From Nitrospirae bacterium RIFCSPHIGHO2_01_FULL_66_17 (GTDB taxonomy: Bacteria; Nitrospirota; Nitrospiria; 2-01-FULL-66-17), in the NCBI GenBank assembly GCA_001803875.1, contig MHEO01000039.1, forward strand, positions 1 to 33,819: 33,819 bases of DNA, given 5' to 3'. This document shows, piece after piece, positions 19,792 to 33,819 of this stretch. The notes below the pieces were generated by a model. It did not search any database, was not told where the DNA came from, and saw nothing but the letters and a program-made list of their open reading frames with translations. Made by a program: the position numbers and the translations under genes. Every line of letters starts with the position of its first letter. Positions within the stretch are counted from its first letter, which is position 1.

Positions 19792-21321
19792 TCACCCCAG
19801 ACTTCGGCGGATCTTGGCGGCATCGAGAATGTACTCCCCGAACTCCCTCCCTTCGCGCCAGAGGAGGTACGCGCTCGACACGAGGTTGCGGTGGAGGTAG
19901 TGCTCGGATCGACGAGGCCCCAGCTCTTCGCCGAAATGCACTTCAAGCAGCTTGACGTCGTCCTGAACGGTCGCCCACGCCGTGTCCTGCTTGGCCAGAA
20001 AATTGAGGTTTTCCTTGTTGAGGTACTGTCCCGCCTCGATGAGATCGGCCCGAAAATTCACGTAGATGGACTCCAGGTCGTCGAGCAGTCCCCGCTTTTT
20101 TGCCGCTCGCAACCCGCGTCCCGCCCCGATCAGCTCCGGGGGAACGCCGATCGAGTACAGCGCGGCCGTGAAGCCGATCGCGCGGGGCAACCGAACGCCC
20201 CCTTCGCCGCGCGCGTAGCCGAACAGGCCGAAGTGCAGCATCCGCTCGCGCCGCTGAGGGATGAACCGCGACAGGTCGTTGATCCGATCCGCCAGCGCCT
20301 CCACGGTGACCTTGTATTCGGCCGAGAAGAGCGCGTTGATCTGGCCGCCGCGTCTCACCTGGTCAGCGGTGTACAGCGGGGCGCGATGCTTTCCGAGCGC
20401 GCGATTGAGCACGCCGATCGCGCGCGTCACCTCGCTCAGGGGATAGTCGTACCGGAACGCCGACTGAATCGTCACGGTGCGGACCCCTGGATACTCACGG
20501 AGAAACGCATCCACCCGTCGCGGCGAGAGCCCCCCGCGGAAGGGAAGACAGCCGACACCGATGATGGGAAACACTGGAATCCCGGTTTCGTCCTCGAAGC
20601 GGTAGTACTCCGAGAGCGCAATCTTGGCCGCGATCGTGGCGGGAACGAGACCGTCGTTGAGCGAGGGGGCGGAGCGGGCCACGAACGGCCTCAAATAATC
20701 CGGCGCCGCCCCGTACTCCCGCCGGTGGAGATCCAGATACTCCATCAGGATTTTACGCGATGCGGTGAGGTGGGAGACGCCCTCGATGAGGGGGATCACC
20801 CTCAAATACGTGAACCGCTTTTCCTTGTCGCCGAACGCCTGGTGCTTGAGTGCGGCCACCTGGGAAAACGTCTTCTGAAGGTGGAGTAATTTTTTGGCAT
20901 CGTCGGTCATCGGAAGGATGACCTCGAACACCGGAGGATGCTTAAATCCCAGATCGTGCGCGAGATCTTCGAACGTCAGGATCCCGATGTACGCGCGCGC
21001 CAGGCGGTAGCCCTTTTCCTCCCAGATGTTCGGGAGCCGGAACGTGAGGAACACGTCCCCGCCCAGCGTCTTCTTCTTAAAGAAGTCGTAGTACTTGGAG
21101 AAAAGTTTGTCGACGACCGCCTCGTCGACGTATTTGCCTTCCCAGTCCCACATGTACTCCTGGCATTTGAGATCCCGAAACGCCGAGACGCACTCCTCCA
21201 CCTCCTCCTGCGCCGAAATGAAGGCGTCGCCATTCTTTTTCCACGGGGGGACGCCGGCGTGATCGGGGTGCTGGGTAGCCATCGTCGCCGGAATTTTGCG
21301 GGGTGGCGAACGGCGTGGAAT
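19792..21321 (-). CDS. ppcA: Archaeal-type phosphoenolpyruvate carboxylase (probable ATT start at 21321; first ATG at 21282)
   Basis: KIPATMATQHPD, EYMWDWEGK, TFRLPN, FEVILPMT, IPLIE, LPFRGGL, TIQSAFRYD, GLFGYAR, LPRAIGF and GVPPELIG motifs. Confidence 0.9.
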   Translation of the reverse strand: MPRRSPPRKIPATMATQHPDHAGVPPWKKNGDAFISAQEEVEECVSAFRDLKCQEYMWDWEGKYVDEAVVDKLFSKYYDFFKKKTLGGDVFLTFRLPNIWEEKGYRLARAYIGILTFEDLAHDLGFKHPPVFEVILPMTDDAKKLLHLQKTFSQVAALKHQAFGDKEKRFTYLRVIPLIEGVSHLTASRKILMEYLDLHRREYGAAPDYLRPFVARSAPSLNDGLVPATIAAKIALSEYYRFEDETGIPVFPIIGVGCLPFRGGLSPRRVDAFLREYPGVRTVTIQSAFRYDYPLSEVTRAIGVLNRALGKHRAPLYTADQVRRGGQINALFSAEYKVTVEALADRINDLSRFIPQRRERMLHFGLFGYARGEGGVRLPRAIGFTAALYSIGVPPELIGAGRGLRAAKKRGLLDDLESIYVNFRADLIEAGQYLNKENLNFLAKQDTAWATVQDDVKLLEVHFGEELGPRRSEHYLHRNLVSSAYLLWREGREFGEYILDAAKIRRSLG

Positions 21322-29570: not shown

Positions 29571-31093
29571 ACACCTTCTCTCAGCGTGATGGTCATCAGG
29601 AACCGGACCTTGGACTGGTCGGCGGTCGTCTTGGCGTCACTCACCACGATACGGCCGACAAAGGGCGCCTTCGAGAGCGCGCCCTCGATGCGGTTCACCC
29701 AGTCGAACGACGCGGTCTCCGCCTCGATCCGGACCTTGTCCTGATCGATGGTCAGATCGGACACCGCGATGCCGCTGTCCTTGGGGATCGCGTCGGTCAG
29801 CTTCAACAGGATGTCGAGCGCGCCAACCTCGCCGCCGAGAAACGCCCGCTGTTTGGCGAGCGTGTCGATCGCAGCCTGGAGCTGATCGGGTTCGCTCACG
29901 ATCGTCGTCACTCCGGGGAGCGCGTCCTGAAAGGCCGCGCGCACCCGGTCCTGCACCTCGCGGTACCGGCGCTCCTTCCCGGCGGCTCGCACCCCCAGGT
30001 CGGCGACGCCCGCCGCGAGCACGAGCGCCGCCATGACGCCCGCGATCATCGCGCGCTTGCGCACCCCCGCCCGCTCCCGACCGTACGCGAACTCCCCCCG
30101 GCGGAAGTCGATGCGGCCGCGGTCGCGGGCCAGCCCCGCGAGCGCCAGACCGGCCGCGAGGGCGACCGGCGCGAGCGGCCGCGGCGCACCGCCGATCGGC
30201 ACCGACGGCCACGCGACGAGCTCCAGCCCCAGCGCGTCGGCGAGGAACGCGCCGACCTCCGGAAGATCCGACCAGAGGCCGCTCAGCGCCATCGCCCCGA
30301 CGCGCCGGCCCGAGTCGACCGCGTCGGCGTGCAGGGTGCGCCGCAACTCGTCGACCGCGGTCCGGAGCGCGGGAACCAGGGCGTCCGCCGCGCGAGCGGC
30401 CGAGGCCCGGTCGGCGTCGTCTCTCGCGTGACGGTAGATGGTTGCCTCCCGGAGCGCCTCGGCTTCGATCCCCGACTCGGCCGCCGCGCGCCTCGCCGCC
30501 TCGCCGTCCCAAGGCACGCCCCGCATCGCCCGCAGGCGCCGGCCGTCGAGCAGCGCCACCGAGATCCACCGATCGTCCAGGTGGATCAGCGCCAGGTCGG
30601 GACGGAGCGGCAGCCAGACCTCGGCGGCATGCGCGAGGGCCTCGGCGTCCACGGTCACCACGCGGGGATCGAGCCCCGCGCGAGCCGCCTCCTCCAGCCG
30701 GGCCCGCAAAGTCGTTTTCGGAACGGCCGCCGCCAGGAGGCGCGAGCGCCCCTCCGCCTGAGACACGAGCGACGCCGCGACCACGACCTCGTCGAGCTCG
30801 AACGGCAACTGCCCCTCGAGCTCGGACGGGAGGACGGCGTCGAGCTTCTCCCGCTGGGTGAACGGCAGGGTGACCGCCCGCGCGGATACGGCGTGAACCG
30901 GCACGCCGAGCGCGACCGGTTGCGCCCCCGGCGCCGCTTCCCGCGCGAGCGCCCGCAGCGTCTCGACCGGGCCCTCGGCGCCCTCGGGCACCCGCCGCGT
31001 GACGGCGCGCTCGATCCGAACGCCCTTGAGCCCCCGATTCACCACCGCGAGCGTAAGCGCCCGCGCGCCGATATCGAATCCCGCCCCGCGCAT
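29567..31093 (-). CDS. gspL: T2SS protein GspL (PilM-like cytoplasmic + PilN-like periplasmic)
   Basis: GFDIGA, VTLPF, ELEGQLPF, IDFRRGEF, TM helix and a PilN-like C-terminal domain. Confidence 0.85.
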   Translation of the reverse strand: MRGAGFDIGARALTLAVVNRGLKGVRIERAVTRRVPEGAEGPVETLRALAREAAPGAQPVALGVPVHAVSARAVTLPFTQREKLDAVLPSELEGQLPFELDEVVVAASLVSQAEGRSRLLAAAVPKTTLRARLEEAARAGLDPRVVTVDAEALAHAAEVWLPLRPDLALIHLDDRWISVALLDGRRLRAMRGVPWDGEAARRAAAESGIEAEALREATIYRHARDDADRASAARAADALVPALRTAVDELRRTLHADAVDSGRRVGAMALSGLWSDLPEVGAFLADALGLELVAWPSVPIGGAPRPLAPVALAAGLALAGLARDRGRIDFRRGEFAYGRERAGVRKRAMIAGVMAALVLAAGVADLGVRAAGKERRYREVQDRVRAAFQDALPGVTTIVSEPDQLQAAIDTLAKQRAFLGGEVGALDILLKLTDAIPKDSGIAVSDLTIDQDKVRIEAETASFDWVNRIEGALSKAPFVGRIVVSDAKTTADQSKVRFLMTITLREGV

Positions 31094-31097
31094 CCCG

Positions 31098-32036
31098 CTA
31101 CGAAATCGGTGTCCCGTTGAGTGTCACGTCGGGCCTCCCAAGCCGACCCCCGATATGCACCGTGATCGGACCGCCCTTGGTCCCCGCGAGGGCCAGCAGC
31201 GGCACGCGCGCGGTGGCCCCCGGCGAGGGCGACAGCTTGAGCGTGAGGTTGAGAATGCTCTCGCTCCAAGGCATCCGCACGAGGACCGTGCCCTCGCCCG
31301 AGGCGGTGCCGAGCGCCCCGCCCGCCGCGAAGCGCTGGACCGTCACCGTCCCGCCCTTGAGCGCAACCTGGGCGGCGATCGTGTCGAACTCGATCCCGTT
31401 GATGGGAACGCCCGCCGCCGTCAGCCCGTCGATCCGCAACCCCGTCACCTCCGCCGACCCCGCGCCCTCGCCGCTCCACCAGGCCTCGTTGGTCCACCGG
31501 CAGGTCAGATCGAGCCGCAGCGTGCCCCGCCAGTCGCCCGGGGGAAGAAACGGCAGGCGCGCCAGTTCGAACCCCTGGCCGACCTGGTCCAGCGCGAACC
31601 GCGCGCCCCCCGGCGCCGGGCGCAACACCCACGTCCCGCGCGACCGGCCGCCATACGCCTCCCACGCGATGTCGGCGTCGACCGTCCGCCGCAGCAACGG
31701 CCACAGCGCGAGCCGGACGCGGACCGCATCCACGGTCAGCGCGTTGAACGGCACCAATAAGCGGCCGCGGTCTCCCGCCGGCTCGAACCGCACGCCCCGC
31801 CACCCCACGCCGAGGGGGAAGAGGAACCGGCCGGACTCCACCGTCACCCGGGCGTGCGTGCTCCGCGCGACCCCGGCCACCAAGGCCGCCTGCAGGCGCT
31901 CGTACGGGAACGTCAGGACCAGAAACAGGCCCGCCGCGACCACGGCGTAGAGGGCGTACGCGGCCGCCGACCGCCACGGAACCCGCGCCGAGCCATCCCG
32001 TGCCGGGCTCATCGTGCCGGCCCGCGCGGGCGCCAC
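31098..32036 (-). CDS. gspN: T2SS protein GspN
   Basis: N-terminal TM ending FLVLTFPYERL followed by a beta-rich AsmA-like body; lies between gspJ and gspL. Confidence 0.75.
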   Translation of the reverse strand: MAPARAGTMSPARDGSARVPWRSAAAYALYAVVAAGLFLVLTFPYERLQAALVAGVARSTHARVTVESGRFLFPLGVGWRGVRFEPAGDRGRLLVPFNALTVDAVRVRLALWPLLRRTVDADIAWEAYGGRSRGTWVLRPAPGGARFALDQVGQGFELARLPFLPPGDWRGTLRLDLTCRWTNEAWWSGEGAGSAEVTGLRIDGLTAAGVPINGIEFDTIAAQVALKGGTVTVQRFAAGGALGTASGEGTVLVRMPWSESILNLTLKLSPSPGATARVPLLALAGTKGGPITVHIGGRLGRPDVTLNGTPIS

Positions 32037-32040
32037 GGCC

Positions 32041-32772
32041 TCACCGCGTCCCGGCGAGGGGCAGGGCCACCACCGTCCGGACGCGCTCGGCGGGCGCGCG
32101 GCCGACGCCCGCCAGCCCGACCGTCACCTCGACCGCTCTCGGCAGGCCCTGGCGCGGTTTCGCCTCCCACGCGTCCACCCAGTCGGCGCCTGCGAGGTAT
32201 CGGAGCTTGAACTCCGTTACGCCCTCGGCCATGTCGTCGGTCTGAACGGCCCACGGCGCGTCACTGAGGACGTTGGATCGTTCCTCCCGCACCAGCCGTC
32301 CGGTCGCGCCGTCGGGGTCGGCCTCGACCCGATACTCGATCTGCGACACGTCGGACTCGGGGCGGTCGGCCACGTACCGCCGGTGGGCGAACGTCGTCCA
32401 GACCAGGCGGTCCCGGCGCGTATCCGCCCCGGCGGCCGTGTCGCTCGATCCCTCGAACCGTCCACGCCCGCCGTTGTCGGCAAACCAGTACGCGGCCGAC
32501 AGCTCGTCCACCAGGCGCTCCGTGATGACCTGCACCTGGCGCATCCGCTCGCTGGCCTCCGCGGTGTCGCGCGTCACGTCCACGCTGCGCGCAAACGCGC
32601 CGTACACGAGGGTCATCACGATCGCTAACAGCCCGATCGCCACCACCACTTCGATCAGAGTAAATCCGCGCTGCGCCAAAGGCGCGGCATGAAAATCGCC
32701 CCTTCCTCTCGGATCGCGAAGCAAGCCGCCGCGCGGCTCTAGCGTGACGGTAGATAGTTGCCTCCCGCTCAC
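32041..32772 (-). CDS. gspJ: T2SS minor pseudopilin GspJ
   Basis: G|FTLIEVVVAIGLL, YRVE, WVDAW, LPRAVEV; unusually long 36-aa leader. Confidence 0.9.
   Translation of the reverse strand: MSGRQLSTVTLEPRGGLLRDPRGRGDFHAAPLAQRGFTLIEVVVAIGLLAIVMTLVYGAFARSVDVTRDTAEASERMRQVQVITERLVDELSAAYWFADNGGRGRFEGSSDTAAGADTRRDRLVWTTFAHRRYVADRPESDVSQIEYRVEADPDGATGRLVREERSNVLSDAPWAVQTDDMAEGVTEFKLRYLAGADWVDAWEAKPRQGLPRAVEVTVGLAGVGRAPAERVRTVVALPLAGTR
32660..32727. repeat. Pseudopilin-leader repeat block A, gspJ copy
   Basis: 61/68 nt identical to 33139-33206 by hand alignment. Confidence 0.9.
32738..32767. repeat. Repeat block B, gspJ leader copy
   Basis: 28/30 nt identical to 33258-33287. Confidence 0.88.
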
Positions 32773-33245
32773 GCCCCGCCCCCCGTCTTTGGACGCTGGA
32801 AGACGTAGCTCACCAGATCGACGCGCTCGTTACGGGAGGGTTCGCCCCAGGCCACCATGACGCGCACCTCCCGGACGAGATCGGTCGAGAACAGGCCGGT
32901 GGGGCTCACCTCCTGCCGCCACGTAAACCGCGCGTGCGCGTCGTCGAACCGGCCTTCGCTGGTCCCCAGGTCGGGGAACCCCCCGATGGTCGCGTCGGCC
33001 ATCCGTTGCTGCGCCAGCGCCGTGGCCGCGATGACGGCGCGGGCCTCGTCGTGGAGGACCATGTCCCGGTTGCGGAGGCCGAGTAGCGCGACGAACGCCA
33101 CCGCGATCACGGCGAGCGCCACCATGATTTCGAGCAGGGTAAATCCGCACTGCGCCGACGGCGCAGAATGAAAATCGCCCCTTCCTTGCGGATCGCGAAG
33201 CAAGCCGGCCACCCGCGTCGAGGTTCGCTGCGTCGGAGCCATCAC
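32769..33245 (-). CDS. gspI: T2SS minor pseudopilin GspI
   Basis: G|FTLLEIMVALAVIAVAF, FTWRQEV, VREVRVMVAW; 34-aa leader. Confidence 0.9.
   Translation of the reverse strand: MMAPTQRTSTRVAGLLRDPQGRGDFHSAPSAQCGFTLLEIMVALAVIAVAFVALLGLRNRDMVLHDEARAVIAATALAQQRMADATIGGFPDLGTSEGRFDDAHARFTWRQEVSPTGLFSTDLVREVRVMVAWGEPSRNERVDLVSYVFQRPKTGGGA
33139..33206. repeat. Pseudopilin-leader repeat block A, gspI copy
   Basis: Matches 32660-32727; contains CTGCGCC-GAC-GGCGCAG hairpin. Confidence 0.9.
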
Positions 33246-33819
33246 GAGGCGGTCGTGTCTAGCGTGACGGTAGATCGTGGCCTCCCGTCGACGTAGCCCG
33301 CGACCACCGTCACCCGGCCGGTGATTGGGTTGATCGTGAGGGTGTAGCGCGACGGCCGCTTATTGATGCCGTTCAACCGATCGCCCTCCTCGAGGTGAAT
33401 CGCCGTCCGCGTGACGCCGCCCGACGGGAAGAACTGGGTGAACGCCGTGCCATCCGTCACCAGACCATGATGCGGGGTGGCCACGTCCTCGAAGCGGACC
33501 TCCGCGGGCAGCGCCCGTTTGGGCCCGACCGGCGGCCCCTCTTCGAGGACGCCGCCACGCGACACCAGCGTCGTCACCCAGAACTCGTCGGTGTCCAGAT
33601 CATAATACAGCCGCTGGATCGTGCGGGTCGCGATCGCCTCCTGAACGAGGGCGGCGGCCAGCCCCGCGAGGTCGCGCGACGCCGATCGCGCGTCGCCCCC
33701 GACGACACGCTGCAGGCGCGGCGCGACCAGCATGGCGACCAGGGCGAGGATGAACACCACGATCGTGATCTCGATCAGGGTAAATCCGCACTGCGCCAAC
33801 GGCGCAGACTGCAATCGTC
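33242..33819 (-). CDS. gspH: T2SS minor pseudopilin GspH (start probably beyond the window)
   Basis: G|FTLIEITIVVFILALVAMLVAP, FFPSG, TINPITGRV. Confidence 0.85.
   Translation of the reverse strand, partial: RLQSAPLAQCGFTLIEITIVVFILALVAMLVAPRLQRVVGGDARSASRDLAGLAAALVQEAIATRTIQRLYYDLDTDEFWVTTLVSRGGVLEEGPPVGPKRALPAEVRFEDVATPHHGLVTDGTAFTQFFPSGGVTRTAIHLEEGDRLNGINKRPSRYTLTINPITGRVTVVAGYVDGRPRSTVTLDTTAS
33258..33287. repeat. Repeat block B, copy in the gspH 3' end
   Basis: TCTAGCGTGACGGTAGATCGTGGCCTCCCG; 28/30 nt identical to 32738-32767. Confidence 0.88.
33780..33817. repeat. Pseudopilin-leader repeat block A, gspH copy (partial, window edge)
   Basis: GTAAATCCGCACTGCGCCAACGGCGCAGA is nearly identical to the gspI copy. 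Confidence 0.85.

Follow-up and report, generated by a model that had tools for sequence, protein, structure and literature searches.

A 60-nt hairpin repeat in the prepilin leaders of type II secretion pseudopilins in one family of uncultured Nitrospirota

The pseudopilin locus and its repeat units

The stretch of DNA analyzed here (the window) covers positions 1 to 33,819 of a contig of 54,931 nt (C39; MHEO01000039.1) of Nitrospirae bacterium RIFCSPHIGHO2_01_FULL_66_17, whose genome assembly of 1.4 Mb is 65% complete and is called G000 below. The last 6 kb of the window carry, on the minus strand, a type II secretion system (T2SS) operon in the order gspH, gspI, gspJ, an unnamed gene, gspL, gspM, and gspK, with Pfam matches to T2SSI, T2SSJ, T2SSL, T2SSM, T2SSK, and the N-methylation motif, and the subject of this study is a 60-nt hairpin repeat (the unit) that lies in frame in the leaders of gspH, gspI, and gspJ. 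G001 to G006 denote other genomes of the same Nitrospirota family (f1), L-numbers denote loci fetched from genomes or metagenomes, and C-numbers denote contigs. All units and genes of the window described below are on the minus strand. The gspJ gene (32041 to 32772) matches PF11612 T2SSJ (E = 8e-12) with N_methyl at residues 34-57, gspI (32769 to 33245) matches PF02501 T2SSI with N_methyl at residues 30-54, and gspH (33242 to 33819) is named by its position, N_methyl being its only match. The three products thus share the class III signal (PF07963), with G↓FTL(I/L)E after each unit (the arrow marks the cleavage site) and with the motif beginning, by Pfam, at residues 30-34 in GspI and GspJ. 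Long leaders, as reported by a preceding reading of the sequence without database searches (the sequence-only reading), are borne out: the leader open reading frames (ORFs) span 33-36 residues, namely 33-34 in gspI and 36 in gspJ.

The unit of gspJ (32668 to 32727) encodes the peptide GLLRDPRGRGDFHAAPLAQR, and that of gspI (33147 to 33206) encodes GLLRDPQGRGDFHSAPSAQC; a covariance model built from 72 units with both of the helices described below (R1) matches them at 32660-32727 (E = 3.4e-16) and 33139-33206 (E = 5.1e-17), the E-values of the window copies ranging from 5e-17 to 3e-16. These two 68-nt blocks differ at 7 of 68 positions, so that the near-identity claimed in the sequence-only reading (61 of 68) is real and exceeds a chance likeness. 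In gspH, the 3' half of a unit is present (33788 to 33819; R1 match 33789-33819, model positions 29-59), and the remainder lies behind 25 N; the copy is truncated as had been noted, although by these 25 N inside the contig and not by its natural end. Directly after the 25 N come an intergenic stretch and then gspG, which in G000 has a plain leader without a unit (MTREHG↓FTLIE). Each copy holds an inner hairpin with a 7-bp stem and a 3-nt loop, and the three different loops described earlier (AAA, GAC, and AAC) are all present on the plus strand: CTGCGCC-AAA-GGCGCGG in gspJ (32671 to 32687), CTGCGCC-GAC-GGCGCAG with a perfect stem in gspI (33150 to 33166), and CTGCGCC-AAC-GGCGCAG in gspH (33791-33807). 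The single stem change in gspJ does pair as T-G on the plus strand, as had been stated, but the genes lie on the minus strand, and the gspJ mRNA has a C.A mismatch at this position.

In mRNA sense, the block that precedes GGA TTT in gspH, gspI, and gspJ reads GGNTTGCTNCGCGATCCG-NNN-GGAAGG...CAT.C-TGCGCC-NNN-GGCGCA-G.GC. The unit measures exactly 60 nt, or 20 codons, with the peptide consensus G-L-L-R-[DHQ]-P-x-G-x-x-x-[LF]-x-x-A-P-x-A-[QH]-x, and a second, outer helix takes as its 3' strand the Gly codon and the first T of the Phe codon. In gspJ, the Gly(-1) and Phe(+1) codons GGA TTT occupy 32662 to 32667, where GGAT forms the 3' strand and its partner ATCC lies within ATCCG at 32710-32714 of the plus strand. 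The GTG start of gspJ (32770 to 32772) overlaps the gspI stop (GTGA), and the ATG start of gspI (33240 to 33242) overlaps the gspH stop (TGATG). Elsewhere in G000, a BLAST search with the block returned only this contig and C32:28525-29084, all of them prepilin loci; C32 adds three copies, as a tandem array of 2.3 units ahead of a pilin-like gene and a single 63-nt unit ahead of the next gene, the two genes forming a second pseudopilin-like pair. R1 gave 10 matches in G000, 4 of which are diverged non-pilin copies, one of these within an element resembling a miniature inverted-repeat transposable element (MITE).

Several other features of this region were recorded. The gene between gspJ and gspL (31098-32036, minus strand; 312 aa) matches no Pfam family at E up to 0.01 and may be GspN-like by position. 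The gspH gene of G000 contains, at about 33329-33352, 24 extra nt (8 codons, LNGINKRP) relative to L072, L092, and a contig of run X2. Between gspG and gspH (C39 about 33900-33950) lies a hairpin of a C-run and a G-run, CCCCCCC-TTTTGCAAA-GGGGGG, followed by GGGGGGATTTT; similar sequence occurs on C41 at about 7085, and related sequence occurs at the same place in G004 and G006. This hairpin may serve as an attenuator downstream of the major pseudopilin gene, or it may be a further repeat.

Distribution, coding constraint, and structure of the unit

Searching 61 genomes with R1 returned matches in all six of the other family genomes (62 in G001, 2 in G002, 27 in G003, 20 in G004, 39 in G005, and 14 in G006) and in none of 54 genomes from 16 other families. 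A 23-nt pattern, allowing up to 2 mismatches and run against 401 genomes of the class, matched five of the six other family genomes with 2-13 matches each; elsewhere in the class, it gave mostly single matches, at about the level of the reversed-pattern control. With a DNA pattern, true copies made up 4 of 15 loci from a collection of species genomes, all from two Nitrospirota metagenome-assembled genomes, the other 11 loci having no hairpin, and 22 of the 34 loci returned from a metagenome collection were true. The unit is confined to one family of uncultured Nitrospirota. Within this family, it occurs in MITE-like modules, as intergenic single or tandem copies, and in the leaders of gspG, gspH, gspI, gspJ, and the second pseudopilin-like gene pair. 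The same architecture recurs in five other genome assemblies, in the 22 true metagenome loci, and in Logan contigs of independent runs, which excludes the assembly artefact that had been raised as a concern.

The copies in leaders differ from the others in how they respect the reading frame. Among 74 distinct leader units, 72 measure 60 nt, one 57 nt, and one 63 nt, so that every length is a multiple of three, and the pilin frame contains a stop in 0/74 units (10/74 and 5/74 in the other two frames). The 16 distinct non-pilin units range from 53 to 62 nt, 6 of them are not a multiple of three, and 6/16 have a stop in the pilin-equivalent frame (4/16 and 1/16 in the other two); by reading, the unit consensus is open in all three frames. 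Tandem spacing shows the same contrast, with the next unit at exactly 60 nt for 35/35 internal leader units and periods of 59, 61, or 62 nt in 7/8 of the non-pilin tandems of G001. The leader copies are under coding constraint and the other copies are not, a contrast that is clear despite the kinship among units. These counts were made after three false matches of the hairpin filter had been dropped (G005_C16 minus 2562, G006_C45 minus 2882, and L077 minus 220) and nine units missed by the filter had been added by hand; ferredoxin-like coding matches that failed the hairpin filter (G005_C8 and G006_C45) also stand outside them. In all leader arrays, the frame is open through to G↓F from a start codon that precedes the entire array, and the longest leaders reach 73-74 aa (gspG of G004) and 80 aa (gspH of G005). 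The leader peptide has a mean net charge of +1.5 and a mean hydropathy of -0.58, values that suit a leader, and a Pfam search with the 77-aa ORF upstream of Phe(+1) in gspG of G004 returned no family.

The structure of the unit was examined in a set of 72 leader units, all distinct and 60 nt long. Pairing in the inner helix (columns 41-47 against 51-57) amounts to 95.8%, with two-sided changes at 5 of the 7 pairs. The outer helix, which appears once the next 8 nt are added to the 60-nt alignment, joins columns 14-18 (ANCCG) to columns 60-64 (C, the Gly codon GGN, and the first T of the Phe codon or of the next unit) and is 97.5% paired, so that the outer ATCCG/CGGAT pairing suggested in the sequence-only reading is real and covaries. 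Pair 15-63 alone occurs as UA (40), CG (16), AU (4), UG (4), GC (1), GU (1), and others (6). Over both helices, 96.5% of cells are paired, against 30-42% in slid controls, and 59 changes on both sides were counted against 11.2 +/- 2.9 after shuffling (0/500 shuffles reach 59). These observations are further strengthened by the MITE-embedded copies, which also show compensatory changes, e.g., ATCTG/CAGAT. Since the stem changes alter the encoded residues (Ser/Val/Gly, Ala/Val/Gly, Gln/His, and Asp/His/Gln), it is the nucleic-acid structure that is kept and not the peptide. The pair tables contain about 8 G.U cells on the sense strand and about 8 C.A/A.C cells, and with numbers about equal, selection at the RNA level and at the DNA level cannot be told apart. 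An Rfam search of 32000-33819 at E up to 10 returned three matches, all with E > 2 and none on a unit. The structure belongs to the repeat and not to the pilin mRNAs.

Copies outside pilin genes and turnover of units

Most of the non-pilin copies in G003, G004, and G005 form part of MITE-like elements, as modules at two fixed slots between terminal inverted repeats. These elements are about 190 nt long with the terminal inverted repeats GGAGCCTGTCCATGAA.../...CTGAACAGGCTCC, as seen in G005 C30 (L046), G003 C18 (L050), and G000 C39:40857, and their slots hold the 60-nt unit in other genomes and a 30-nt module in the G000 copies, one G004 copy having neither. The 30-nt module is palindromic (consensus CGCGAGGCAACGATCTAGCGTCACGCTAGA, with a 17-nt palindrome), has 63 matches to its core in G000, and occurs singly, in 30-nt tandem arrays (C48, C30, and C18), and as a module of about 20 MITE-like copies. 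Within the window, it is found on the minus strand in frame in the gspJ leader (32738 to 32767), where it is absent from L072 and where contigs from other loci end exactly at 32737/32768; as the last codons of gspH (33258 to 33287; GRPRSTVTLD), G002 GspH ending about 10 residues earlier; and in gspL (30421 to 30451), where orthologues vary in linker length and a clean 10-codon insertion could not be shown.

G001 presents a different picture, with many intergenic copies, single or paired, whose 3' end GGNTTGAC supplies or touches a -35 box (compare GGNTTTAC at prepilin sites). A TAnnnT motif lies 16-18 nt downstream in 10 of 20 non-pilin loci, against 1% of 1000 control positions; the set comprised 19 loci of G001 (18 from L117-L135, with L125 left out, and L041) and one of G005 (L044). 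As a general rule, promoter adjacency was rejected, as it holds for only 1 of 20 copies in G003 and G005, most of which are MITE modules, and it is therefore a trait of one lineage and not of the unit generally. At L117 (G001), two units and a partial third lie at the TTGACA of a promoter, in an array flanked by (G)TTGAC on both sides, and the orthologous promoter is unit-free both in G000 (TTGACA-N18-TAGAAT, C32 about 21090-21130) and in G002 (TTGACA-N17-TAAGAT, C318, L158); for the L126 promoter, the G002 orthologue could not be used because the contig ends there. The GG-N-TTGAC junction resembles the prepilin GGN-TTT-ACN, which suggests a sequence-directed choice of site. The inverted repeat of the unit is its 5-bp outer pair, and the GGNTT copies that flank units at pilin sites often differ. 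When gspH, gspI, and gspJ were read, without a formal scan, for an internal promoter using TTTACN as the -35 box, no TAnnnT was seen 16-18 nt downstream.

Comparison of strains and relatives reveals that leader units are gained, lost, and exchanged at fixed sites. Two metagenome loci, L072 and L092, are near-identical to the window in their coding flanks. In gspI, L092 is empty (leader MDPTQRASTRVGG↓F, with the same ATG overlapping the gspH stop), L072 carries a different unit, and G000 carries the unit of the window; gspJ of both loci starts at an ATGA overlap in place of the GTGA of the window. In gspG, the leader MTREHG↓F of G000 corresponds to MKRED, one unit, and G↓F in L082 and L102, to two units in L097, and to three in G004; in every case, the same ATG with its GAGGTGA Shine-Dalgarno sequence lies upstream of the units. 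In G002, which belongs to the genus of G000, the gspH and gspI leaders (19 and 21 aa, respectively) contain no unit, and gspJ has only half of one. Unit numbers per orthologue thus run from 0 to 3 in gspG, gspH, and gspI and from 0.5 to 3 in gspJ. At the gspI unit, contigs from two further DNA runs omit exactly 60 nt, but the intervening sequence is not known and may be a different unit and not an empty site. In filled and empty alleles alike, the ATG or GTG start that overlaps the preceding stop is conserved, and the native starts are therefore placed by sequence upstream of the units and not downstream of the repeat.

Units of different genes in one genome are more alike than orthologous units. 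Genome-specific variants are shared in this way, with GGAACGATTGTCACC in the last units of gspH, gspI, and gspJ of G001 and GGGGCGATTTTCAT in gspI and gspJ of G000, and together with the swapped gspI unit, these point to recombination between units at work. The gene conversion proposed in the sequence-only reading is accordingly retained, as a secondary process only. As a separate observation, gspJ of G002 (L115 about 1160) and gspG of G001 (L038) have Ala in place of Gly at -1 (QGA↓FTLVE and EGA↓FTLIE, respectively), in each case beside a partial unit.

Origin of the units and likeness to known elements

We consider it probable that the unit is a lineage-specific selfish hairpin repeat that is tolerated in prepilin leaders, where it would be translated and then removed, and that is shuffled by recombination. 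This is the mobile repeat with a safe haven suggested by the sequence-only reading, and it agrees with copies outside pilin genes, with empty alleles both in near-identical strains and within the genus, with leaders that differ in length among relatives, with native starts upstream, and with leader copies that are in frame and free of stops. The ends of the unit (5' GGNTTG... and 3' ...C-GGN-TT) mimic both the prepilin cleavage codons GGN TTT AC and the -35 boxes of promoters (GG TTGAC), and the repeat lies exactly 5' of the Gly-Phe codons and would insert at -35 boxes as well. Translation would begin at the native upstream start and read through the units, and leaders would retain none but stop-free copies of 57, 60, or 63 nt. 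The resulting basic and hydrophilic leader of 20-80 aa would stay in the cytoplasm until cut at G↓F by prepilin peptidase, whose gene (PF01478) is present on G000 C50, and removal of the leader at this site would leave the mature pseudopilin unchanged and the insertion presumably neutral. Arrays may then grow, shrink, be lost, and be overwritten through recombination between units.

Several observations weigh against this reading. A unit or half unit is found in at least one gsp pseudopilin gene of every family genome examined (7/7), so that a retained function is possible. Among 13 class III signal-peptide genes found in G000 with a regular expression, 9 are without a unit, among them every type IV pilus pilin (two PilA-like genes and six genes for minor pilins belong to this unit-free group), and 4 carry one (gspH, gspI, gspJ, and a C32 pilin; the second C32 gene, with G↓FSYLF, carries a unit and escapes the expression); sequence mimicry alone thus fails to explain the choice of genes. 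No clean target-site duplication was seen at pilin sites, where the flanking GGN codons often differ. Genes for Y1 transposases occur in all 5 genomes tested, but neither 60-nt nor 30-nt units lie within 1.5 kb of any of the three in G000. The gspI-gspJ junction and the unit are covered by one contig from an RNA library, which may stem from contaminating DNA and does not prove transcription. Moreover, the units are related to one another, so that the counts given above are not independent trials and overstate independence. As for the Y1 genes of G000 themselves (IS200/RAYT-like; C57:321-650, C60:6868-7203, and C20:20750-21076), the C20 gene is flanked by its own direct repeats, GAGGCTCTGGGGTCA..., which are unrelated to the units.

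The constancy of units in gsp genes would also be expected if they had been exapted as regulators that now tune pseudopilin output, the hairpins and a Shine-Dalgarno-like GGAAGG gating translation or leader length setting the rate of processing, with array length adjusting the stoichiometry of GspG, GspH, GspI, and GspJ. The purine-rich GGAAGG/GGAGGG is conserved in columns 22-27, array length differs between strains as it would for a tunable element, and the type IV pilus pilins of G000 are spared. We nevertheless regard this explanation as unlikely, because the sequence and both helices are equally kept in copies upstream of promoters and in MITE-like repeats that are unable to act on a pilin mRNA, because unit number ranges from 0 to 3 among orthologues, a single strain sometimes having none in a gene, and because the sense strand shows no bias in its G.U and C.A/A.C cells; loop codons able to act as starts are not more frequent in last units (26/37) than in inner units (21/35), and the Rfam search was without a match on a unit. 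The equal conservation of the structure in such copies, the unbiased sense strand, and the Rfam result likewise lend no support to the shared cis-regulatory RNA that the sequence-only reading had offered as one of its explanations. A downstream start, with the units as untranslated 5' leader DNA and the pseudopilin beginning at TTG or GTG in or just after the last unit to give a 5-aa leader (M-A-Q-x-G), draws on the in-frame TTG, GTG, or ATG at unit codon 17, five codons before Phe, in those same 26 of 37 last units (gspJ and gspH of the window included). It is very improbable, as such a codon is missing from 11 of 37 last units, among them that of gspI in the window (TCG), as alleles that lack units use the upstream start, and as the frame-preserving lengths of all 74 leader units and their complete freedom from stops, which extend to the upstream units of arrays, would be left unexplained. 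Shine-Dalgarno sequences are spaced 5-10 nt from the start codon, and GGAAGG lies about 21 nt from codon 17, which is too far.

Pure concerted evolution, by which an ancestral long leader was duplicated in tandem and its copies were kept alike by gene conversion alone without any mobile element, would account for the variants common to different genes of one genome and for the replacement of the gspI unit between strains with otherwise near-identical flanks. It is very improbable as the sole explanation, being contradicted by dozens of non-pilin copies, and stands only as a secondary process: of the 62 matches in G001, 9 on C21 (the gsp cluster) and 2 in L116 (the second pilin pair) lie at pilin genes, none of the 21 other loci read is at a pilin gene, and the remaining matches were not fetched. 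The promoter copy, cleanly inserted where the orthologous sites are empty, argues in the same direction, as does gspG, in which the short native leader (MKRED) persists unbroken ahead of the unit and offers no homology there to drive conversion. A more specific proposal, within the mobile-repeat explanation, is a non-autonomous mini-transposon of the single-strand type that finds its site by base-pairing of ANCCG (columns 14-18) with the junction C-GGN-T and therefore homes to GGNTT(G/T)AC, the sequence of promoter -35 boxes and of the similar Gly-Phe-Thr codons of prepilins. The column 15 variants U, C, and A go with GGA, GGG, and GGU, respectively; we hold this proposal to be quite unlikely, but if true, the unit would represent a natural element directed by a guide, placing in-frame cassettes in a secretion signal.

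Short hairpin repeats are known from REP/REPIN sequences with their RAYT transposases and from the IS200/IS605 single-strand transposons. The pairing of the internal ANCCG with the junction C-GGN-T is reminiscent, by analogy, of the guide-to-target pairing of such elements; unlike in REP/RAYT systems, the unit does not lie beside a Y1 gene in G000, no GTAG head was seen, and many copies are intragenic. The BOX elements of Streptococcus pneumoniae resemble the unit in having a short hairpin module in variable tandem number and in inserting into one another. They are likewise modular (PMC10969869) but intergenic, whereas the module described here also lies in frame in coding DNA. The same review also describes the Rickettsia palindromic elements (RPEs), which insert in frame into many genes and are, like the unit, a dispersed palindromic family with many in-frame copies that add a peptide without destroying the gene (PMC10969869). 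According to the same text, RPEs are about 150 bp long and enter unrelated genes, in regions retained in the mature protein (PMC10969869), whereas the unit measures 60 nt, is often tandem, and is tied to one codon pair (Gly-Phe) in a segment that would be removed after translation; the resemblance is functional only. The palindromic amphipathic repeat coding elements are palindromic tandem units in coding sequence as well, but encode, as far as the available text of PMC2996958 goes, part of a functional surface protein and not a cleaved leader.

Prepilins of type 4 filaments carry a hydrophilic leader that lies in the cytoplasm, differs in length, and is cut off after a Gly or Ala residue (PMC10191384). 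The long-leader prepilins treated there (type IVb and Streptococcus sanguinis) share with the present case a class III leader of variable length that is removed, but those leaders are of unique sequence (PMC10191384), whereas here the extra length is a genome-wide DNA repeat that varies from 0 to 3 units between strains and extends the leaders of T2SS pseudopilins to about 74-80 aa. Within the limited collection of literature searched, no report of repeats in prepilin leaders was found.

Selfish repeats within genes are known and must usually be tolerated by the folded protein; here, the inserted peptide would be removed by the cell itself. The long repetitive pilin N-termini annotated in these genomes are probably real and not miscalled starts, and leaders reach about 80 residues with units against 6-13 residues without them (19 and 21 aa in gspH and gspI of G002). 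For the biology of secretion and pili, the family thus provides natural alleles with 0-3 cassettes in which the effects of leader length on targeting and on processing by prepilin peptidase could be followed. For the biology of mobile DNA, it provides a very small element with a sharp junction shared with -35 boxes, gain and loss at the level of strains, and covariation between paired bases of the element and its junction, a hint at how its sites may be chosen.

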